Below are positions 640-60,912 of a DNA stretch of 64,000 nt, one piece after another (the first letter of the stretch is position 1; the number at the start of each line of letters is the position of its first letter). A program made the translations under genes and the position numbers. Origin of the DNA: Escherichia phage vB_EcoM_JE01; sequence record PQ471460.1. One strand, given 5' to 3'. The notes beneath the pieces are model-generated. The model made no database searches. It saw nothing but the letters and a program-made list of their open reading frames with translations, and was not told the DNA's origin.

Positions 640-933
640 ATGGCCTTAAAAGCAACGGCACTATTTGCCATGCTAGGATTAGCGTTTGCTTTATCTCCAC
701 CGATTGAAGCGAATGTCGATCCTCATTTTGATAAATTTATGGAATCTGGTATTAGACATGTTTATATGCTTTTTGAAAATAAAAGCGTAGAATCATCTGA
801 ACAGTTCTATAGTTTTATGCGAACGACCTATAAAAATGACCCGTGCTCTTCCGATTTTGAATGTATAGAACGAGGCGCGGAGATGGCACAATCATACGCT
901 AGAATTATGAACATTAAATTGGAGACTGAATGA
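640..933 (+). CDS. rI: lysis inhibition regulator RI (signal-anchored periplasmic protein)
   Basis: 97 aa; MALKATALFAMLGLAFALSPPIEANVDPHFDKFMESG... matches recalled T4 RI; SD AGGAGG upstream. Confidence 0.9.
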   Translation: MALKATALFAMLGLAFALSPPIEANVDPHFDKFMESGIRHVYMLFENKSVESSEQFYSFMRTTYKNDPCSSDFECIERGAEMAQSYARIMNIKLETE

Positions 934-1316
934 AATTCAGCGACTTTTCACAAAGTGGAAAACCTTCAAAGGCAGATGAATACTTAGGTTTATTAATGGC
1001 TGCGCAAGCTTATTTTCATTCTGCGCATTTTGAAACTAAAAGTTATGCTAGACACAAAGCATACGATTTTATTTTCTCTGAGTTGCCAGATTTGATTGAC
1101 AAATTTGGTGAGCAGTATTTGGGGTATTCTGGTAGAAAATACACGCCGGCAATTCCGGATGCCAGTAAACTTCCTACTGATACAGTTAAAATGATTGATC
1201 GCATACTAGACCAATCTAACAGCATTTATAAAGAAATGCCTCCAGCCATTCAAAGCACGATAGATGATATTACTGGAATGTTTTACCAGAGTAAGTATCT
1301 TCTTTCCCTCGAATAA
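930..1316 (+). CDS. hypothetical protein (rI.-1 position)
   Basis: 128-aa ORF overlapping rI stop (ATGA). Confidence 0.6.
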
Positions 1317-1320
1317 CATT

Positions 1321-1343
1321 AGTCTCCTTCGGGAGACTTTTTT
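1321..1343 (+). terminator. rho-independent terminator (UUCG hairpin + T-run)
   Basis: agtctcc-ttcg-ggagact followed by TTTTTT. Confidence 0.7.
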
Positions 1344-1353
1344 CATTTTACCG

Positions 1354-1383
1354 GTTTACTTTCCATTTGAGCTGTGATACTAT
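1354..1383 (+). promoter_or_regulatory. T4-type early promoter (GTTTAC -35, 18-nt spacer, TACTAT -10)
   Basis: ccGGTTTACtttcc...gtgaTACTATacaa; same module recurs at 43509. Confidence 0.6.
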
Positions 1384-1411
1384 ACAACCATCGGATAAAG
1401 AGGAGAACATC

Positions 1412-1600
1412 ATGAAAATTGAAGCACTTAATCAAGAAGGAAATATCTACGTCATCATTAATGGTGATTTTTTCGTCGACATGGATGAAGTTACTAGTGA
1501 AGAACTTGTAGAACTTCTTAAGAAACGTTATGATATGTGTGATGAAGCTGCAACTCATATGGCGTGTGCAATATTCTCTCTTTCATATGTGGTGGAATAA
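1412..1600 (+). CDS. hypothetical small protein
   Basis: 62-aa ORF; SD AAGAGGAG before ATG; lies downstream of the early promoter. Confidence 0.45.
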
Positions 1601-1782
1601 TGATTAGTATCGAACAAGCAGATAAAATTAAAGAATTGGTAGCTTTAATTCGCAAAGCAGATGAGGAACGCATTAACTTTGCCTTATCAGGTATTGAAGA
1701 ATTTGAAGCTAAAGTTGATAATGCTTTAGAAGCTTTAGATATGTTTCTTGATGAAATTATCGATCACAATACGAGAGTTTAG
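1600..1782 (+). CDS. hypothetical small protein
   Basis: 60-aa ORF, ATGA overlap with upstream ORF. Confidence 0.45.
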   Translation: MISIEQADKIKELVALIRKADEERINFALSGIEEFEAKVDNALEALDMFLDEIIDHNTRV

Positions 1783-1783
1783 T

Positions 1784-1978
1784 ATGCTAACACGTGAACA
1801 GTTTGAAAAAATCATTAAATTAGCACGTGATATTGAAATAGATTCATATCAATTGGCAGTTGAGCACTGTGAAGGATATTCATACGACGGTATAGAAGCA
1901 GCTAAAAAGGATTTGGATAAATCCAAAGCTAAGTTAGTTCAATATCTTGAAATGATTAGGTGGAATAATGAAAACTGA
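1784..1978 (+). CDS. hypothetical small protein
   Basis: 64-aa ORF in tandem small-gene run. Confidence 0.45.
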   Translation: MLTREQFEKIIKLARDIEIDSYQLAVEHCEGYSYDGIEAAKKDLDKSKAKLVQYLEMIRWNNEN

Positions 1979-2099
1979 AAAGCAGATGTTTTTAATGAAG
2001 CTAATTGAAGAATATGCTAATGCAGTTTCTGACTATGAGTATTCTGCTCGGGAAAGAGGTACAGCTTTCGCAAAGGAAGAAATGAAAAATTATGGTTGA
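1968..2099 (+). CDS. hypothetical small protein (43 aa)
   Basis: Short ORF overlapping upstream stop; below ORF-track cutoff. Confidence 0.3.
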   Translation: MKTEKQMFLMKLIEEYANAVSDYEYSARERGTAFAKEEMKNYG

Positions 2100-2144
2100 T
2101 GCTCACACAAAACTCCAGAATTTTATTGAAACCGTCATTTAATG

Positions 2145-2174
2145 GTTTACAAGTTGGCAAGGTTATGATATAGT
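2145..2174 (+). promoter_or_regulatory. T4-type early promoter with stem-loop
   Basis: GTTTAC ... TATAGT at 18-nt spacing; imperfect inverted repeat agttggcaag/cttgtcaact around the -10. Confidence 0.5.
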
Positions 2175-2309
2175 AATCTTGTCAACTGTCAAGGAGAAGA
2201 GAATGAAAGTTTTGTTTGTTGTGTATGTGATGATTCAATATAATTACCCAATGTTTACTTATAATCTAGTGAACAACATTATTGATATTATTCAAAGGAG
2301 TATGTAATT

Positions 2310-2867
2310 GTGAGTGAGTCGAAGAGAATCAATATGAAACGATTAGTACTAGAAGTTAGTTCACTTTTTGGTGAATTGGCTATAGAAAAAGTAAATAATA
2401 TGTATCGTTTGACGCAAGAAGACGATATGCTATATTTTACGCCTAGCGAAATTATTCATTTAACCCAAATTGAAAAACCTTACACTGATAAAATTGTAAG
2501 CATCAATGATGAGCATAAAATTCATTTTTATTCTTTATGCCCAGGATTTAACATTGAAAGCGAGTCAATATGCTTATCAATTAATAATTGGGATAATTTT
2601 ATAACTAAAATTAAATATTTTTATTATTCTAATGAAAGAAAACATAGTTTAAAATGGCTTAAAAATTGCAATGCTATTATTACTAACGCTTGTGATCGGA
2701 ATGATGAAACTGTTTTAAATGTATCAAAATGTTATGAAGAGGGAGATGTCTTAACTATTCGTCAAATTGATGATTTTCGATCACATATTGTCACATTTAC
2801 CAAAGACGAAGCTATTGCGCTAAAGACTTATCTTGATTCTGTCATTCCAACTATGATTTCAAAGTGA
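2310..2867 (+). CDS. hypothetical protein, paralog of the next ORF
   Basis: 185-aa ORF (GTG start after AAGGAG); shares GFNIE-E motif and C-terminal ...AIALKTYLDSVIPTMISK with the next ORF (...AEAMIKYLTTVTPSMKG). Confidence 0.6.
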   Translation: MSESKRINMKRLVLEVSSLFGELAIEKVNNMYRLTQEDDMLYFTPSEIIHLTQIEKPYTDKIVSINDEHKIHFYSLCPGFNIESESICLSINNWDNFITKIKYFYYSNERKHSLKWLKNCNAIITNACDRNDETVLNVSKCYEEGDVLTIRQIDDFRSHIVTFTKDEAIALKTYLDSVIPTMISK

Positions 2868-2873
2868 GGAAAT

Positions 2874-3395
2874 ATGTTTATTTCAAGTGAAAGTGGTTTA
2901 ATTCGTGTTGAATTTAAAAATGACATCTTCCTTATTCAAGGAGATGATATTATTAAAATGAGTTATGATGAAATCAAGAAAATTTGTCATGCTCTTGAAA
3001 GTCATGGAAAGGAAAATGCTACTATTAATATAGGTGATTTATGGGTGACACTTTATGAAGTATCCGAAGGATTTAATATTGAAGATGAAAATAACATTTT
3101 AGCTATTGATAAAAGAAGTGATTTGTTTGATGTATTAAAAGTTTATGAACAATCAAACGGTGGAAGAAAAGCCGTATTGATTTATCAAAAACCGCATTCA
3201 TGTGGAACTGCTTCAATCATTTCAAATATTGAAGATGAAACTGATACCTATATGTGTGTTTTGAAAGCTGGTGGTGACCGTCATCCGGATTTTATTTCTA
3301 TTCGTCAAAACAATGGAGAAATTTCATTATCAAAATCAGAAGCTGAAGCTATGATTAAGTATTTAACAACTGTTACACCTTCAATGAAAGGATAA
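2874..3395 (+). CDS. hypothetical protein, paralog of the previous ORF
   Basis: 173-aa ORF; SD GAGGAAA; shared motifs with 2310-2867. Confidence 0.6.
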   Translation: MFISSESGLIRVEFKNDIFLIQGDDIIKMSYDEIKKICHALESHGKENATINIGDLWVTLYEVSEGFNIEDENNILAIDKRSDLFDVLKVYEQSNGGRKAVLIYQKPHSCGTASIISNIEDETDTYMCVLKAGGDRHPDFISIRQNNGEISLSKSEAEAMIKYLTTVTPSMKG

Positions 3396-3397
3396 TT

Positions 3398-3859
3398 ATG
3401 ATTATTAATGAAAACTCTTGGCATTATAAATTATTCAAAATGTTTAATGATGAATGGAAACGGCCTAAGACACTATGCGCGTATTTTTGGTCTATTGTTA
3501 TTCCTACATTTTTCGTTTCTTTTTTCGGATGTACTATACTCGCAGGTCTAACTATCATCTGTGCAGAAATCATACAGAAATGGCTTATTTTTGGTAGTTT
3601 ATGGACTCTTATTCCATCAGCATTTGTACTTGCCATTTTGCTTGTTTTACTTATTATTGGTTCATTTGTTATTCCTGCACAACTGCATGAAAAATATAAA
3701 GATTATAAATGGAAAAAGGATTATGCTTTACATGTAGAAAATATTGATAGGGCGTATAAAGGTTTACCTCCTATTCAACCCAAGAAGTCTATTATCGTCG
3801 AATTTTTAAAAGCTCGTAAAGCTAAAGTATGTCCTGTTATTGAATATAAGGCTGAATGA
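3398..3859 (+). CDS. predicted integral membrane protein
   Basis: 153 aa with at least three long hydrophobic segments. Confidence 0.6.
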   Translation: MIINENSWHYKLFKMFNDEWKRPKTLCAYFWSIVIPTFFVSFFGCTILAGLTIICAEIIQKWLIFGSLWTLIPSAFVLAILLVLLIIGSFVIPAQLHEKYKDYKWKKDYALHVENIDRAYKGLPPIQPKKSIIVEFLKARKAKVCPVIEYKAE

Positions 3860-4845
3860 TGAAAACAGTAATGAAAAGCTATTTTGGTAGTCATCTTTAT
3901 GGAACTTCTACTCCAGAATCTGATGTAGATTTTAAAGAAATCTTTGTTCCTCCTGCTCGCGATATTCTTATCGGAAATGTTAAAGAGCATATGAGTAAAA
4001 ACACTAAAGATGATATTGACCATGAACTATACAGTCTTAAGTATTTCTTTAAATTAGCAGCAGACGGTGAAACTGTAGCATTGGATATGCTTCACACTCC
4101 ACCTGAACTAGTAGTTAAATCTGATTTGCCTGATGTATGGAAGTTTATTCAAGACAATCGTTCACGGTTTTATACGACTAACATGAAATCCTATTTAGGA
4201 TATGTCCGCAAGCAAGCTTCTAAATATGGTGTTAAGGGTTCTCGTTTGGCCGCATTGCGTGATGTATTGAAAGTAGTTAATCAAATCCCCGATCAGTGGG
4301 TTGATTACCGAGAAGATGGAACACAAGGACAACGTCGTACTAAAATTGCAGATATTAAACACCGTCTTCCAGAGAACGAGTTCTGTGAATGGGTATTCCA
4401 TAACCACGAGAAAACAGGTCCTCAAACGTTCTATACTGTTCTTGGACGTAAGTACCAAACCACCTTGTCTTTAATCGAGCTCAAGCAATCTCTGAATAAG
4501 CTCGATGCGGAATATGGTGAACGTGCTCGTAAGGCTGAAGCTAATGAAGGTATTGACTGGAAAGCTCTGAGTCATGCTTATCGCGCAGGGTATCAATTGA
4601 TGGAAATCTACCAAACAGGTGATTTGGCGTTCCCATTGCGCGAAGCCTCTATCATTAAGCTGATTAAAGCCGGTGAATTACCATTTAAAGAAGTTCAAGA
4701 ACTTCTTGAAGATACTGTTGATTTGGTTGAAGTCCTAGCCATCCAGGCAGCTAAGAACGGTATGCCTGATAAGGTAGACATGAAGTTCTGGGACAAGTTC
4801 GTTGAAGAGGTATATCTTGAAAACCACCGAAGTTATTATAAATGA
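3856..4845 (+). CDS. predicted nucleotidyltransferase (Pol-beta superfamily fold)
   Basis: 329 aa; N-terminal GS-x10-DVD (YFGSHLYGTSTPESDVDFKEIF) typical of Pol-beta-type NTases, with a further acidic residue about 50 aa downstream (VALDMLH). Confidence 0.65.
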   Translation: MMKTVMKSYFGSHLYGTSTPESDVDFKEIFVPPARDILIGNVKEHMSKNTKDDIDHELYSLKYFFKLAADGETVALDMLHTPPELVVKSDLPDVWKFIQDNRSRFYTTNMKSYLGYVRKQASKYGVKGSRLAALRDVLKVVNQIPDQWVDYREDGTQGQRRTKIADIKHRLPENEFCEWVFHNHEKTGPQTFYTVLGRKYQTTLSLIELKQSLNKLDAEYGERARKAEANEGIDWKALSHAYRAGYQLMEIYQTGDLAFPLREASIIKLIKAGELPFKEVQELLEDTVDLVEVLAIQAAKNGMPDKVDMKFWDKFVEEVYLENHRSYYK

Positions 4846-4847
4846 TA

Positions 4848-4872
4848 GGGAGCCTTCGGGCTCCCTTTTTTG
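4848..4872 (+). terminator. rho-independent terminator (UUCG hairpin + T-run)
   Basis: gggagcc-ttcg-ggctccc TTTTTTG. Confidence 0.7.
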
Positions 4873-4894
4873 TTTAAAATGACGTCACAAAGTT

Positions 4895-4924
4895 GTTTAC
4901 AAGCATAAAGCTTTATGGTACTAT
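4895..4924 (+). promoter_or_regulatory. T4-type early promoter
   Basis: GTTTAC, 18 nt, TGGTACTAT; followed by conserved leader CAACTATCAACT. Confidence 0.6.
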
Positions 4925-4959
4925 ACAACTATCAACTGATGTGGATTTGGGGGAATAAA

Positions 4960-5109
4960 ATGAAAACTACGTTAATTGAAGTAAAAAAGTTGATTGACAC
5001 AGAAGAGATTTCAGCTTGTTTTGAAAATTTCTTAGAAGATGCAACTGAAGATAACGCAGTTTATCTCGCTCAGAAAATTATAGAAACATATTTGGAGCAG
5101 AATCAATGA
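4960..5109 (+). CDS. hypothetical small protein
   Basis: 49-aa ORF downstream of the promoter. Confidence 0.4.
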   Translation: MKTTLIEVKKLIDTEEISACFENFLEDATEDNAVYLAQKIIETYLEQNQ

Positions 5110-5369
5110 CAGTTTACGTAGATGTTTTAATGAATCATGGATGGAAACTTCGCGGTCATCCAACTAAAAATTGTCATATGTTCACTGATGGAGATATTGA
5201 AGAGCTTCATGAAATGGCAGAAGCAATAGGAATGAAACGCTCTTGGTTTCAAGATAAACGCATTAAACATTATGACTTACACGCGCGCCGCCGCCAAAAA
5301 GCCGTAGAACTTGGAGCTGTAGAAGTATCTCGTCGCGAAGCAGTAAAAATTTGGCGAACATTAAAATAA
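5106..5369 (+). CDS. hypothetical protein
   Basis: 87-aa basic ORF (ATGA overlap); no confident family assignment. Confidence 0.55.
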   Translation: MTVYVDVLMNHGWKLRGHPTKNCHMFTDGDIEELHEMAEAIGMKRSWFQDKRIKHYDLHARRRQKAVELGAVEVSRREAVKIWRTLK

Positions 5370-5372
5370 ATT

Positions 5373-5402
5373 GTTTACAGTAGGGTAGTAGTGTGATACT
5401 AT
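5373..5402 (+). promoter_or_regulatory. T4-type early promoter with stem-loop
   Basis: GTTTAC ... TGATACTAT; inverted repeat tagggta/taccct flanks the -10. Confidence 0.55.
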
Positions 5403-5438
5403 TACCCTATCAAAACAAATGTTAAATTGGAGAATAAA

Positions 5439-6407
5439 ATGAAAACTGTAACTATCAATAAGGGTATCTACTTCGGTAAAGAAATCTCTGGAACTTTTGA
5501 GCTCTTAGGCGAATGGTTCCCAGATAATGCTCCGGTAGATGCACAGGGAGATGGTAAAGTTTTTGTTGAAATTGACGGTAAACGTCGCGGTGTTTGGGTT
5601 TACAAATCAGATATTTCATATGATGGTGTAAAAGTTGAAGAAGTTAAAGAATCATATGAAGATATGAAAACCCGCATTAATAAAAGATTTAATGTTATGG
5701 GAATGATGACGAATGGTATTATTAATGGAAATATTCGTTCATTGATTATCTCTGGCGCAGCAGGTATTGGTAAAACGTATTCTTTAGATAAAGCTTTAAA
5801 TAAAGCAAATGATAATGGATACATTGAATATAAAAGCATTAACGGTAAAATCTCTGGTATTGGTCTTTATGAGCAGCTTTGGAATAATCGTGAAGAGAAT
5901 TCTGTCCTTTTGATTGATGATGTGGATGTTTTCTCTGATATGGACATTCTTAATCTTCTAAAAGCTGCTCTGGACACTGGAGAGACCCGTAAAGTCTGCT
6001 GGAGTACTGCGTCTTCTTACTTAGAAGAAAAAGGCATTGAGCGTGAGTTTGAATTTAAAGGAACGATTGTTTTTATCACAAACGTTGATATTGACCGCGA
6101 ATTAGACCGTGGTACTAAACTTGCTCCACACCTACAAGCATTAGTGTCCCGCTCAGTTTATTTAGATTTGGGTGTTCATACTAATGAAGAAATTATGGTC
6201 AGGGTTGAAGATGTTATTCTTTCAACTGACATGATGCAAAAGCGCGGTCTTTCTGATGAAGAAACTTATAAAGCATTATCATGGATGAAAGTTAATGTTA
6301 ATCGTTTACGCAATGTTTCACTGCGTACTGCTCTTTATCTTGCTGACTTTATTATGACCGACAAAAACGGTTGGGAAGAAATTGCTGAAACGGTATTATT
6401 AAAATGA
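5439..6407 (+). CDS. predicted P-loop NTPase (AAA-like ATPase)
   Basis: 322 aa; Walker A GAAGIGKT and Walker B LLIDDVD; SD GGAG before ATG. Confidence 0.65.
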   Translation: MKTVTINKGIYFGKEISGTFELLGEWFPDNAPVDAQGDGKVFVEIDGKRRGVWVYKSDISYDGVKVEEVKESYEDMKTRINKRFNVMGMMTNGIINGNIRSLIISGAAGIGKTYSLDKALNKANDNGYIEYKSINGKISGIGLYEQLWNNREENSVLLIDDVDVFSDMDILNLLKAALDTGETRKVCWSTASSYLEEKGIEREFEFKGTIVFITNVDIDRELDRGTKLAPHLQALVSRSVYLDLGVHTNEEIMVRVEDVILSTDMMQKRGLSDEETYKALSWMKVNVNRLRNVSLRTALYLADFIMTDKNGWEEIAETVLLK

Positions 6408-7123
6408 AAAAATATTTTACTATCTATAAAACTGAAATATTAAATTTAAAGACAGGTATTAAGAAATACTATTATGGTCGACATATAACTAATAACATCA
6501 ATGATTCGTATGTTGGTAGTGGAAATTATATAGAACGTGTAAAAGTGTCAAATGACCACATATTATCAAAAACGGTTTTAGAAGTTTTTGATAATTATGA
6601 TAAAATGGTACAAGCTGAAATATTATATATCATGGCAGGTAAATTGAAATATGGAAAAAACTGTGTTAACCTGTCATACGGGGGTGAAGGAGGAAAGGTT
6701 GCAGATGAAACTAGGATAAAATGCAAAAAGCATTCTATAAATTTATGGAAAAATCCTAATCATATACAGCATATGAAGAAAAAGATGAAAGAGGTTACAT
6801 CCACGCCGGAAGCTAAATTAAACACTTCAATAAAAACTTCGCAACGATATAAGGACCCAGTTTTTGTTAGAAAAGTTAGTAATATTATTAAAAAGAAACT
6901 AAGCAATCCTGCAGTAAAAGAAAAGCATATTAATGGAATTAAAGCTGCAAAGCGTTCTCATTTAACTATATGGCAGTATGAAGATGAATTATTCGAGCTT
7001 TGGAAAGAAACTAAATATGGATGGAGAAAATTTACAAAGGAAGCTATAAAACACGGATATCCAAATGAACCGTATCGTAGTATGGTATCAACTTTTCAGA
7101 AAAGACATTTAGAAGAATCCTAA
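6404..7123 (+). CDS. putative Seg-like (degenerate GIY-YIG) homing endonuclease
   Basis: 239 aa, lysine-rich and AT-rich; N-terminus FTIYKTEILNLKTGIKKYYYGRH resembles GIY-(10-11)-YIG; C-terminal basic repeats typical of DNA-binding modules. Confidence 0.5.
   Translation: MKKYFTIYKTEILNLKTGIKKYYYGRHITNNINDSYVGSGNYIERVKVSNDHILSKTVLEVFDNYDKMVQAEILYIMAGKLKYGKNCVNLSYGGEGGKVADETRIKCKKHSINLWKNPNHIQHMKKKMKEVTSTPEAKLNTSIKTSQRYKDPVFVRKVSNIIKKKLSNPAVKEKHINGIKAAKRSHLTIWQYEDELFELWKETKYGWRKFTKEAIKHGYPNEPYRSMVSTFQKRHLEES
6404..7123 (+). mobile_element. putative free-standing homing endonuclease gene
   Basis: Same ORF as above; compositionally distinct from neighbours. Confidence 0.4.
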
Positions 7124-7511: not shown

Positions 7512-7564
7512 GTTTACAAGACTGTTCCTCTGTGGTACTATACAACTATCAACTACGGAGGAAC
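7512..7564 (+). promoter_or_regulatory. early promoter inside a stem-loop (PeSL-type cassette)
   Basis: GTTTAC, 18 nt, TGGTACTAT; stem gttcctctg/cggaggaac encloses the -10 and forms the SD; near-identical copy at 60741-60793. Confidence 0.6.
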
Positions 7565-7569
7565 AGAAA

Positions 7570-8097
7570 ATGAACGCTAAAGATATTTTCAACTTAGTAA
7601 ATTATAACGATGGTAAATTTAAATCTGAAGCACAAAGCAAGTTCTTTAACGACATCTCAATCGGAGGTGAAATCACTGTTGATGGAGGACAAATTTACAA
7701 ATCACGTTGGAATTGGATCGTTATTATTGATGAGATTGGTATTGTAGAAATTTACAAGAATACGAATAAAAATCGTACATTACACTGGTCTCGTGATACT
7801 AACGAACAGTACAAAAAGGATAAAGCATCTAAAATGTCTCGTGTAACTCAAGAAGATATTGAGTTCATCAAGAAAGATATTTTAATGTATGATAACTTAA
7901 TTGCTGAAGAGCAAGCTGTTATTGATAAATTTGACGAGATTAAAGCTTCTCGTGAAATTCCTGATTTTATGAAAGAATCAGTAAATGAACGATACTCTCT
8001 CATTTCAGAGCGTATTGAAACTTACAAAAAGCAAAGAGCTGAACGCCAAAATACTCTTCGGAAGTTTGAAGAACGGTTAAAGACGGTACTCGCATAA
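7570..8097 (+). CDS. hypothetical protein with coiled-coil C-terminus
   Basis: 175-aa ORF immediately after the cassette. Confidence 0.6.
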   Translation: MNAKDIFNLVNYNDGKFKSEAQSKFFNDISIGGEITVDGGQIYKSRWNWIVIIDEIGIVEIYKNTNKNRTLHWSRDTNEQYKKDKASKMSRVTQEDIEFIKKDILMYDNLIAEEQAVIDKFDEIKASREIPDFMKESVNERYSLISERIETYKKQRAERQNTLRKFEERLKTVLA

Positions 8098-10495: not shown

Positions 10496-10524
10496 TTTAC
10501 TTTGCCACAAGGATGTGGTATAAT
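10495..10524 (+). promoter_or_regulatory. T4-type early promoter
   Basis: GTTTAC, 18 nt, TGGTATAAT; module ccacaaggatgtggtataat repeated at 55750. Confidence 0.6.
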
Positions 10525-38736: not shown

Positions 38737-38773
38737 TTTACAAGCTGACAAGACTATGGTATAGTAGTCTTGT
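38736..38773 (+). promoter_or_regulatory. early promoter inside a stem-loop (PeSL-type)
   Basis: GTTTAC, 18 nt, TGGTATAGT; 9-bp stem acaagacta/tagtcttgt encloses the -10. Confidence 0.55.
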
Positions 38774-39223: not shown

Positions 39224-39253
39224 GTTTACAAGCTGATAGAGTTGTGTTATAGT
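39224..39253 (+). promoter_or_regulatory. early promoter with stem-loop
   Basis: GTTTAC, 18 nt, TTATAGT; inverted repeat gctgatagag/ctatcagc. Confidence 0.5.
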
Positions 39254-39284
39254 AATTCTATCAGCTAATCGCGGAGAAAAGAAA

Positions 39285-41980: not shown

Positions 41981-42631
41981 GTGAATTACCAAAAAATTTA
42001 CTCGGCTTTAATTACAAAAGCTAAATGCCGGCATCTTGGTGGATATAAAGAACGCCATCATATAATTCCTAGATGTATGGGAGGAGCAGATGACAAAAAC
42101 AATCTTGTTGAGTTAACTGCGCGTGAGCATTTTATAGCTCATAGATTATTAACCAAAATATATCCAGATGTGAGAGGATTGCATTATGCTGTAAATTTAA
42201 TGCGATATAATAAAGGTGTTAAATTAACAAGTAGATTAATAGAAACCCTTAAAATTCAAAACTCTGTTCTTTTCTCGGGTGAAAATAATCCTAGATATGG
42301 CAAGCCGTCATGGATTAAAGGCAAAAAGACCCCAGAAGAAACTAAAGCCAAAATGCGTCTAGCTCATAAAGGTAAAATTATATCCGATGAAGCCAAGGCT
42401 AATATGAGTAAAGCCCGAAAAGGAAGATTTAGCGGTAAAAATTCACCTCGATATTGTTTACCGAATCCAAGACGTGGTGAGATATGGAATTCGTATGATT
42501 CGCTTTACGAGTTGTGGGTTTATAATAATAGACCTAAGCGCACAAAATTTAATAAAATAGCTGTCAAGGCAGGTTATCCTAATATCTGCTATAGACATAT
42601 GATAGAAAACTTCATAAGAAAGGAAAAATAA
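41981..42631 (+). CDS. HNH homing endonuclease (mob-type)
   Basis: 216 aa; N-terminus ...ERHHIIPRCMGGADDKNNLVELTAREHFIAHRLL... paralogous to 26328-27044; GTG start. Confidence 0.75.
   Translation: MNYQKIYSALITKAKCRHLGGYKERHHIIPRCMGGADDKNNLVELTAREHFIAHRLLTKIYPDVRGLHYAVNLMRYNKGVKLTSRLIETLKIQNSVLFSGENNPRYGKPSWIKGKKTPEETKAKMRLAHKGKIISDEAKANMSKARKGRFSGKNSPRYCLPNPRRGEIWNSYDSLYELWVYNNRPKRTKFNKIAVKAGYPNICYRHMIENFIRKEK
41981..42631 (+). mobile_element. free-standing homing endonuclease gene between genes 61 and 56
   Basis: HNH family; inserted in an intergenic position. Confidence 0.55.
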
Positions 42632-43222: not shown

Positions 43223-43468
43223 ATGGCTAGTACTCGCGGTTATGTTAATATCAAAACATTTGAGCAGAAATTAGATGGAAATAAGAAAATTGAAGGAAAG
43301 GAAATTTCAGTAGCTTTCCCTCTTTATTCTGACGTTCACAAAATTTCTGGCGCTCATTACCAGACATTCCCTTCAGAAAAAGCAGCATATACTACTGTAT
43401 ATGAAGAAAATCAACGTGATGCATGGATTGCTGCAAACGAAGATTTGTGGAAAGTAACTGGTGAATAA
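43223..43468 (+). CDS. soc: small outer capsid protein Soc
   Basis: 81 aa; MASTRGYVNIKTFEQKLDGNKKIEGKEISVAFPLYSDVHKISGAHYQTFPSEKAAY... matches recalled T4 Soc. Confidence 0.9.
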   Translation: MASTRGYVNIKTFEQKLDGNKKIEGKEISVAFPLYSDVHKISGAHYQTFPSEKAAYTTVYEENQRDAWIAANEDLWKVTGE

Positions 43469-43474
43469 ATTCAA

Positions 43475-43498
43475 GGACTCCTTCGGGAGTCCTTTTTT
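43475..43498 (+). terminator. rho-independent terminator
   Basis: ggactcc-ttcg-ggagtcc TTTTTT; duplicate of the 1321 module. Confidence 0.7.
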
Positions 43499-43508
43499 CA
43501 TTTTACCG

Positions 43509-43538
43509 GTTTACTTTCCAAAACAAGTATGGTATAAT
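43509..43538 (+). promoter_or_regulatory. T4-type early promoter
   Basis: GTTTAC, 18 nt, TGGTATAAT. Confidence 0.6.
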
Positions 43539-43564
43539 AAAATTATCTTATAGAGGAGAGCACC

Positions 43565-43771
43565 ATGTTAAATCGTTGGATTAAACCAAATGAAGATTTA
43601 GATATTATCATTTCACGGCATGTAATGAAGAAATATGAACTACAACCATGGTCTACAGAAGTTGTTGTGCATTCATTTATGATGTACGCAGATGGTTCTG
43701 TCGAATTTAATGCAGAGATTCGATATGATTATGGTGAGAAGCAAGTTGAATTCAAGAGAGGCTTTTTGTAA
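43565..43771 (+). CDS. hypothetical protein (soc.1 position)
   Basis: 68-aa ORF; SD GAGGAGAG. Confidence 0.5.
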   Translation: MLNRWIKPNEDLDIIISRHVMKKYELQPWSTEVVVHSFMMYADGSVEFNAEIRYDYGEKQVEFKRGFL

Positions 43772-45610: not shown

Positions 45611-45640
45611 GTTTACTTTCCTTCCTAACAATGATATGAT
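45611..45640 (+). promoter_or_regulatory. T4-type early promoter
   Basis: GTTTAC, 18 nt, TATGAT. Confidence 0.55.
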
Positions 45641-45666
45641 AGCTTCTGAAGTATATGGAGGCTATC

Positions 45667-46290
45667 ATGATTATTAATCTTGCAGATGTTGAACAGTTAT
45701 CTATAAAAGCTGAAAGCGTTGATTTTCAACATGATATGTATAAAAAGGTCTGTGAAAAATTTACTGACTTTGAACAATCAGTTCTTTGGCAATGTATGGA
45801 AGCCAAAAAGAATGAAGCTCTTCATCGGCAGTTGAATAAAATCATTAAAAAGCATTTAACTGAATCACCTTATCAGTTATATCGTGGTATATCAAAATCG
45901 ACAAAAGAACTCATTAAAGATTTACAAGTCGGAGAAGTGTTTTCAACGAACAGAGTAGATTCATTTACTACTAGTTTGCACACAGCGTGTTCTTTTTCTT
46001 ATGCTGAATATTTCACTGAAATAATATTTCGCTTAAAAACTGATAAAGCTTTTAATTATTCTGACCATATCAGCGATATTATACTTTCTTCTCCTAATAC
46101 TGAGTTTAAGTATACATATGAAGATACTGATGGATTAGATTCAGAACGTACTGATAACTTAATGATGATTGTACGTGAACAAGAATGGATGATTCCAATT
46201 GGAAAGTATAAAATAACTTCTATTTCAAAAGAAAAATTACACGATTCATTTGGAACATTTAAAGTGTATGATATTGAGGTAGTTGAATGA
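45667..46290 (+). CDS. modB: ADP-ribosyltransferase ModB
   Basis: 207 aa from ATG after GGAGG; R-S-E motif (YRG ... STN ... EQEWMIP). Confidence 0.7.
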   Translation: MIINLADVEQLSIKAESVDFQHDMYKKVCEKFTDFEQSVLWQCMEAKKNEALHRQLNKIIKKHLTESPYQLYRGISKSTKELIKDLQVGEVFSTNRVDSFTTSLHTACSFSYAEYFTEIIFRLKTDKAFNYSDHISDIILSSPNTEFKYTYEDTDGLDSERTDNLMMIVREQEWMIPIGKYKITSISKEKLHDSFGTFKVYDIEVVE

Positions 46291-52229: not shown

Positions 52230-52260
52230 AGTTTAAATTTTTTCATAAAACTATATACAT

Positions 52261-52299
52261 CAGTAGTTGATTATGGTATTATATCAATATCAACTACTG
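52261..52299 (+). promoter_or_regulatory. stem-loop enclosing an extended -10 (TGGTATTAT)
   Basis: 11-bp stem cagtagttgat/atcaactactg; no clear GTTTAC -35. Confidence 0.45.
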
Positions 52300-52400
52300 A
52301 TACAGAAAACAACTTGGAGAATAAAATGGAAAATTTGCCAAAGGTGCTGCTACTCTTCTGAAACGCATCGCTCCACTGTTCAATTAATGAGGAAATTGTA

Positions 52401-60740: not shown

Positions 60741-60793
60741 GTTTACAAGACTGTTCCTCTGTGGTATTATTACTCTATCAACTACGGAGGAAC
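60741..60793 (+). promoter_or_regulatory. early promoter inside a stem-loop (PeSL-type), copy of the 7512 cassette
   Basis: GTTTAC, 18 nt, TGGTATTAT; stem gttcctctg/cggaggaac. Confidence 0.6.
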
Positions 60794-60798
60794 AGAAA

Positions 60799-60912
60799 AT
60801 GAAAAAGATTGTTAAAGCTATATGGAATGTAGTTATAATACTAGTAGTTTTGAGTATATTCCCAATCGTTTTAATGATTGATGTATTAAACGCTTACTTT
60901 GGATTTATGTGA
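60799..60912 (+). CDS. small membrane peptide (37 aa)
   Basis: First ATG after cassette SD. Confidence 0.35.
   Translation: MKKIVKAIWNVVIILVVLSIFPIVLMIDVLNAYFGFM

Follow-up and report, generated by a model that had tools for sequence, protein, structure and literature searches.

The window, meaning here the whole 64,000-nt stretch of Escherichia phage vB_EcoM_JE01 (PQ471460.1) that was analysed, comes from a Tequatrovirus (T4-like) phage. Tequatrovirus phages match its first 6 kb from end to end, with at most 97% identity (EcNP1, Nami), and its + strand corresponds to the direction of T4 early transcription. Two short intergenic segments of this strand, located 42 kb apart, were compared (Table 1). 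Site A lies between rI.-1 and a homologue of mobD.5, at the end of rI.1-rI-rI.-1, which is described as one operon; a 701-nt stretch around it is 99.1% identical to phage CJY920. Site B lies between soc and a homologue of mrh.2. Each site lies between two genes of the same strand, after the stop codon of the first (1316 and 43468) and before the ATG of the second (1412 and 43565). The preliminary description had placed the two loci after rI.-1 and soc, and these gene names are borne out by identities of 98% (site A) and 94% (site B) to annotated T4. Ahead of soc, an ORF of 216 aa similar to HNH-type homing endonucleases (41981-42631) directly adjoins the homologue of gene 56 (dCTPase) at its start (42633). 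At this place T4 lacks an ORF and carries segF between 56 and soc instead; segF is absent from the window phage.

Table 1 Features of the two sites, their neighbouring genes and the inverted repeats of other promoters in the window
Feature	Position	Strand	Remarks
rI.-1	930-1316	+	Upstream neighbour of site A; named via annotated T4
Site A	1321-1383	+	Intergenic, rI.-1 to mobD.5 homologue
Site A terminator hairpin, AGTCTCC-TTCG-GGAGACT	1321-1338	+	5 nt past the rI.-1 stop codon
Site A copy of the 29-mer	1337-1365	+	T-run, linker CATTTTACCGG, -35 TTTACT, TTCCA; exact match to 43492-43520
Site A T6	1338-1343	+	Read from sequence
Site A -35, TTTACT	1355-1360	+	Read from sequence
Site A extended -10, TGA-TACTAT	1375-1383 (TACTAT 1378-1383)	+	17 nt past the -35; fits the PST/T4 PeSL consensus
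Site A Shine-Dalgarno, GAGGAG	1400-1405	+	Ahead of the mobD.5 homologue
mobD.5 homologue	ATG 1412-1414, ORF end 1600	+	T4 annotation
soc	43223-43468	+	Upstream neighbour of site B; named via annotated T4
Site B	43473-43538	+	Intergenic, soc to mrh.2 homologue
Site B terminator hairpin, AAGGACTCC-TTCG-GGAGTCCTT	43473-43494	+	5 nt past the soc stop codon
Site B copy of the 29-mer	43492-43520	+	T-run, linker, -35, TTCCA; exact match to 1337-1365
Site B -35, TTTACT	43510-43515	+	Read from sequence
Site B extended -10, TGG-TATAAT	43530-43538 (TATAAT 43533-43538)	+	17 nt past the -35
Site B Shine-Dalgarno, GAGGAG	43553-43558	+	Ahead of the mrh.2 homologue
mrh.2 homologue	ATG 43565-43567, ORF end 43771	+	T4 annotation
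Inverted repeats at the -10	7522-7566, 60751-60795, 38748-38773, 39231-39266, 45636-45668, 52259-52301		Six window promoters

The hairpins at the head of the two sites have 7 (site A) and 9 (site B) pairs in the terminator scan, and RNA folding gives them -10.8 kcal/mol (z -4.3) and -15.1 kcal/mol (z -4.6), respectively, with 0 of 200 shuffles equal in either case. They resemble other intrinsic (Rho-independent) UUCG-tetraloop terminators in their GC-rich stem of 7-9 bp, their UUCG loop and their T6; as predicted terminators nothing about them is unusual, a GC-rich hairpin and then a U-tract following a stop codon. Promoter elements come directly behind. The promoter of site B (TTTACT-17-TATAAT) reaches 10 of 12 matches, with a TG, in a simple promoter scan; that of site A was not called by the same scan because TACTAT and TTTACT together give 8 of 12 matches, below the scan threshold. 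Both sites continue with GAGGAGA(A/G)CA, 2-3 nt and the ATG. The record of phage Lutter has a terminator and a promoter annotated at the orthologous places of both sites, and that of PhAPEC2 has a terminator annotated at the orthologous place of site B. The distal subsite of UP elements is a T tract at about -52 to -47. Upstream of the promoter, both sites read T6CATTTTA, with the T6 run at approximately -52 to -47, and by its position the T-run within the site A 29-mer would be at once a terminator tail and a distal UP-like T tract. From this position and general knowledge of UP elements, the T6 stretch may serve terminator and promoter alike, so that a single stretch would be under both constraints. 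For the mrh/srh/modA region, the T4 literature names the early promoter Pe15.0 (PMC6024815), and site B, judging by its place upstream of mrh.2-mrh-srh-modA, is probably this promoter.

The sequence that the two sites have in common falls into two exact blocks: 12 nt within the hairpins (CTCCTTCGGGAG) and 29 nt (CTTTTTTCATTTTACCGGTTTACTTTCCA) that span the T-run, the 11-nt linker CATTTTACCGG, the -35 hexamer and 5 nt past it. Between the two blocks there are 2-3 differing bases and a 1-nt indel, and the outer stem pair shows a compensatory difference (T-A in A, A-T in B). The identity ends at 1365/43520, short of the -10 elements (TACTAT and TATAAT). A 28-mer taken from the patch has exactly two matches in the window, even with 3 mismatches allowed, and none in 100 shuffles; the 64,000-nt window holds no third copy of the 29-mer. 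The nearly identical run of about 45 bp that had been reported, from a UUCG hairpin to a -10 element, is thus exact in the hairpin core and the 29-mer, but the -10 elements differ and lie outside it. Since the pairwise alignment extends the identity to the linker and to 5 nt past the -35, more than the hexamers and the T-run is shared.

How far this likeness exceeds what early promoters generally share can be judged within the window, the + strand of which carries about two dozen T4-type early promoters with a long consensus in common. T4 early promoters are known to have an extended consensus beyond the hexamers, described as "uber UP/-35/TGn/-10" (Hinton 2010, PMC2988021), and sites A and B are similar to them in their GTTTAC-type -35, 17-nt spacer, TGn -10 and T/A-rich upstream region as read from the sequence. 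They differ in the proximal upstream segment, which is CATTTTACC at both sites and of the A-rich CACAAAAC type at other window promoters, and in that their T tract belongs to the preceding terminator. The linker CATTTTACCGG occurs in none of the roughly 22 other early promoters, and the suggestion that the likeness is more than promoter consensus holds for this genome. Among 276 pairs of early promoters, the exact run through the -35 is longest for A and B (29 nt), followed by runs of 26, 19 and 16 nt; the pair is the top of a continuum and is not unique. What is special to it is the linker and the terminator that directly abuts the promoter, the remaining terminator-promoter pairs of the window (4855/4896 and 63830/63879) being looser. 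A second pair of twin promoter modules (7513-7574 and 60742-60803) lies 53 kb apart and is identical at 61 of 66 positions. These twins are alike from the -35 through the spacer, the -10 and the Shine-Dalgarno sequence to ATGAA, the likeness stopping at the second codon, and their upstream regions are different. The presence of other twin promoters in the window therefore makes twin pairs a general property. As a separate observation, the promoter upstream of a mobD.2a-like region (2130-2151) reads TCATTTAATGGTTTAC, close to the T4-type site B linker CATTTAAATGGTTTAC, and the CATTT(A/T)A motif is therefore also found outside post-terminator cassettes.

Composite elements of this kind are known from T4-type phages as promoter-early stem-loop (PeSL) cassettes (Arbiol et al. 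2010, PMC2839356; Comeau et al. 2014, PMC4122927). According to these two papers, a PeSL combines a stem-loop that acts as terminator, an AT-rich stretch, an early promoter of the sigma-70 type, a Shine-Dalgarno sequence and an ATG; its conservation extends over about 100 bp at most and the cassettes are concentrated in hyperplastic regions (PMC2839356; PMC4122927). They also report terminator and promoter activity from reporter assays in RB49/phi1, a later extension of the class to the T4/PST pair with the consensus TTTACW-N17-TAYWAT and stems that are often AGNA-loop-TCNT, a greater variability in that pair, and a proposed role in recombination with inverse PCR evidence for nearby copies (PMC2839356; PMC4122927). 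By layout and consensus, sites A and B can be assigned to this class as predicted composites of a terminator, a sigma-70 early promoter and a ribosome-binding site. Their promoters (TTTACT-17-TACTAT and TTTACT-17-TATAAT, both with TGn) fit the consensus; their conservation as dispersed copies goes beyond the hexamers, as in PeSLs; and the Shine-Dalgarno sequence and start codon stand at the 3' end of the conserved element. The frequent stem motif is matched by site B (AGGA...TCCT) but not by site A (AGTC...GACT). The association of PeSLs with variable genes also has its counterpart here: soc alleles have been exchanged, with the junction falling at the hairpin, and genera differ in their mobD region. 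The spacing, in contrast, is different. Documented PeSL exchanges concern cassettes 1-4 kb apart that flank dispensable ORFans, whereas sites A and B flank 42 kb that include the block of replication genes. The small genes bracketed by their own promoter and terminator also recall the morons of lambdoid phages, the regulatory sequences of which lack conservation from one copy to the next and are not regarded as mediators of exchange (PMC2839356).

The orthologous places of both sites were compared in related phages of four other genera (Dhakavirus VR5 and JS10, Gaprivervirus VR7, Gelderlandvirus STP4-a and Mosigvirus PhAPEC2). A cassette made of a hairpin, T6, a linker and GTTTAC stands behind rI.-1 (or rI) in all five of them and behind soc in VR5 and PhAPEC2; VR20, STP4-a and Klebsiella phage Potts1 have the soc terminator without a clear -35. 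The layout of the orthologous cassettes is family-wide: hairpin, T6, C-R-TTT-W-A, 3-4 nt, GTTTAC, W-T-Y-C. The -10 TACTAT is common to the site A orthologues of VR5, JS10, VR7 and STP4-a, and the outer stems of the hairpins as well as the -10 elements are site-specific in every phage examined. Across Tequatrovirus, the orders rI.-1/cassette/mobD.5 and soc/cassette/mrh.2 are kept, and the related genomes contain only two copies of the shared patch (986 places in 539 records). With cassettes at these loci in at least four other T4-like genera, both are old residents of their places and not recently moved elements. As to whether the genes downstream of each copy vary, the answer is divided: the gene behind site A differs between genera (mobD.5 in Tequatrovirus and VR7, an ORF similar to VR7 gp109 in VR5 and JS10, others in PhAPEC2 and STP4-a), but the directly downstream genes are conserved within Tequatrovirus. 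A scan of IMG/VR for the composite pattern returned 8 stretches from 6 contigs, which add further alleles and are too few for population inference.

Two side observations concern the soc terminator. Its loop (43482-43485) varies while the stem is kept: TTCG in the window and T4, TCCG in Lutter, CT01 and RB32, CTCG in HY01 and CGAA in CJY920, the last being the reverse complement of TTCG, as if the loop had been inverted. In Klebsiella phage Potts1 (Marfavirus), 27 nt behind a soc-like gene (AAGGACTCCTTCGGGAGTCCTTTTTT) are identical to the site B terminator despite the large phylogenetic distance, with no -35 next to them.

The two sites differ markedly in their allele spectra. A 40-mer of site A is identical in 154 of 524 records and has 1-2 differences in another 342 (496 of the 524 within about 2 mismatches). 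For a 38-mer of site B, approximately 108 records match exactly, 66 have 1 mismatch, 194 have 2-3 and 116 are more diverged; in about 55 records (~10%, for example T2), site A alone was detected. The exact site B allele is present in about 20% of Tequatrovirus records and the rest have from 1 to more than 6 differences, T4 itself having 3 (TTTAAATGG). The perfect identity of A and B is hence one allele state, the window phage being one that has the zero-difference allele at site B. With site A nearly invariant and site B highly polymorphic, the two are not undergoing homogenisation; in the comparison of A/B allele co-variation, site A hardly varies.

The most probable reading of these data is that sites A and B both belong to the PeSL class and have long resided at their loci, and that their near-identity reflects the family architecture together with shared descent of the 29-nt patch. 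At each site, the hairpin with its UUCG loop and U-tract would end the unit before it, which is the rI operon at A and soc at B, and a strong sigma-70 early promoter directly behind the terminator, followed by a strong ribosome-binding site, would drive the next small early gene. Part of the likeness between A and B would then be architecture common to the family, to which a few idiosyncratic positions in common are added. These would be due to shared descent, probably through one old short-patch conversion on the Tequatrovirus stem that brought a B-type sequence to site A, after which site A would have been frozen and site B would have drifted.

The signal for such a conversion comes from the distances of the patch. 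The Tequatrovirus patch at site A has 0-3 differences to site B of the T4 lineage and 4 to site B of VR5, against 7-10 to site A of VR5, JS10, VR7 and STP4-a, which belong to three genera and all have GTTTACATCCTC. Had B been copied to A, site A would have had GTTTACATCC-type ancestors and would have switched abruptly where Tequatrovirus branches off. The segment from the spacer to the ATG of the Tequatrovirus site A has 13-15 differences to site A of VR5 and JS10 versus 15-19 to site B sequences, and groups weakly with its site A orthologues; the hairpin is uninformative as to site, with 5-6 differences to the site A sequences of VR5, JS10 and VR7 versus 4 to site B of the T4 lineage. The patch distances are compatible with one ancient short-patch conversion, which would have run from B to A, although the evidence for it is weak. 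The patch has only about 28 nt and is under strong functional constraint, and the contrast between orthologues and paralogues therefore rests on a handful of positions. Moreover, the site A orthologues form a series, ACATCCTCC in STP4-a, ACTTCTCC in PhAPEC2 and ACTTTCC in Tequatrovirus, along which a B-like state could have been reached stepwise without any conversion. It is no more than a tentative proposal that PeSLs 42 kb apart exchange sequence by short-patch ectopic gene conversion and that the Tequatrovirus patch at site A was copied from the soc/mrh.2 cassette. If this were true, concerted evolution would have produced twins such as A/B and 7513/60742 and could hold separate early units to common promoter properties.

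Any such exchange would have had to be of a particular kind. By T4 gene order (annotation), the interval between A and B includes DNA polymerase and other replication genes. A crossover between the sites would excise 42 kb with these genes and would leave no viable phage, so that only non-crossover patches could survive. The panel of genomes contains no product of recombination between A and B, no mini-circle and no indel bounded by both copies; the junctions that were found are allelic, at the same locus. In CT01 and HY01, a soc allele with a nucleotide identity of 0.37-0.63 gives way to 0.93-0.97 exactly at the start of the hairpin (43470). In T2 and RB32, a divergent island reaches from the 3' end of soc to the -35 region (~43428 to 43520) and ends inside the promoter. 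Among these Tequatroviruses (CT01, HY01, T2 and RB32), soc is thus mosaic over window positions 43223-43530. Exchange at the cassette does take place, though between phages at the same locus and not between A and B. That the mosaic junctions lie within the cassette or at its edge supports the PeSL idea that conserved regulatory cassettes anchor the exchange of neighbouring genes.

One rearrangement does involve site A. Phage Shinka lacks 4.7 kb corresponding to window positions 1386-6108, from mobD.5 through part of an nrdC.11-like ORF; its homology to site A stops at 1385, and a second gap relative to the window covers 6389-7119. The junction has a 9-nt microhomology (GTGGTACTA) between the -10 region of site A and window positions 6109-6117 inside the ORF. 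A deletion between two PeSLs was considered for this case and rejected, since the partner breakpoint (6109) lies inside an ORF and not in another cassette; the event is a microhomology deletion that happened to use the -10 of site A.

Among the alternatives to shared descent, one possibility is that the likeness arose by constraint, a terminator set against a T4 early promoter being driven to this very sequence with neither descent nor exchange between A and B. The extended consensus of T4 early promoters (PMC2988021) goes in this direction, as do the orthologous tight cassettes of other genera with the same T6-CRTTTWA-NNN-GTTTAC layout, the recurrence of GTTTACTTTCC at 45612 with similar forms at 10496, 50563 and 55741, and the exact runs of 14-26 nt that are common among promoter pairs of the window. 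Yet the linker varies among cassettes of the same layout (AGGGG, AGTG, AGCAG, CTAGAG), and ACCGG/ACTGG is limited to site A of Tequatrovirus and site B of the T4 lineage, plus site B of VR5 with one change. T4 itself functions with TTTAAATGG at site B, so the exact linker is not required, and the A and B patches differ at 7-9 positions within Dhakavirus and likewise within Mosigvirus. Pure convergence is therefore unlikely. An RNA-level reason for the conservation of ACTTTCC, in which a read-through CUUUCC would pair with the Shine-Dalgarno sequence GGAGAG at site B, was also considered and dropped: T2 and RB32 keep the same Shine-Dalgarno sequence with ACATATC or ACATGTC, and the long fold at site A is no better than shuffles (z -1.5).

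Alternatively, a recent ectopic gene conversion from A to B in the lineage of this phage could have made the two 29-mers identical. The T4-type (TTTAAATGG) and window-type (TTTTACCGG) alleles of site B are indeed separated by 3 substitutions within 4 nt while the surrounding intergenic region of ~110 nt is almost identical, and the divergent island of T2 and RB32 ends at ~43518, just where the A/B identity has its right end (43520). Nevertheless, the allele TTTTACTGG, which a single transition separates from that of the window, is present at site B of Lutter, CJY920, CT01 and Dhakavirus VR5, and the likeness of B to A therefore looks old. The linked site B variants (TC/AA and T/C, at adjacent bases) occur in each of the four possible combinations, which points to recurrent point mutation, and polymorphism is far higher at site B than at site A. 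In every phage, the part of the 3' stem that separates the two identical blocks keeps its B-specific bases (GGAGTCC, not GGAGAC), and a single tract coming from A therefore cannot cover both blocks. A recent transfer from A to B is thus quite improbable. The last alternative, a mobile module that carried a gene between the sites by PeSL mini-circle insertion or moron-like transfer, can draw on the mini-circle mechanism documented for closely spaced PeSLs in RB49/phi1 but is contradicted by the data, since rI.-1 and soc are unrelated upstream genes, the downstream proteins MobD.5 and Mrh.2 (62 and 68 aa) have no detectable similarity and give no BLASTP alignment, on which ground a gene-carrying module was rejected, synteny is kept within Tequatrovirus and cassette positions across genera, and the only site A deletion found, that of Shinka, joins the -10 to an ORF interior with no second cassette.

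The two terminator-promoter cassettes, 42 kb apart, are near-identical members of one class, and the comparisons made gave no evidence for recent transfer or for recombination between A and B. The preliminary suggestion of module transfer or recombination keeps its footing insofar as cassettes acting as recombination points are the published PeSL model, which it in essence rediscovers, the element class and its proposed role being already in print; a transfer between A and B can be retained only in a weak, historical sense. The 29-nt identity represents one allele state of a known class of elements and is not a sign of a new mobile module. The value of the comparison is mainly one of annotation, in the exact coordinates of two predicted terminator/early-promoter/RBS cassettes. 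Modest additions are the finding that, among about 520-540 sequenced relatives, site A has stayed frozen while site B drifts, and the faint indication that distant cassettes may once have undergone a single ancient short-patch conversion.

The promoters of the window show a further feature. Perfect inverted repeats of 8-13 nt, lengths that are rare in shuffles, straddle the -10 in 6 of 21 early promoters (Table 1) and are absent at sites A and B. In the twin promoters at 7513 and 60742, the right arm of the repeat is the Shine-Dalgarno sequence (CTGTTCCTC and GAGGAACAG, respectively). Read-through transcripts of such promoters would have their ribosome-binding site masked. These inverted repeats resemble the PeSL stem-loops of RB49, which have been described as located "between -35 and -10 or overlapping -10".
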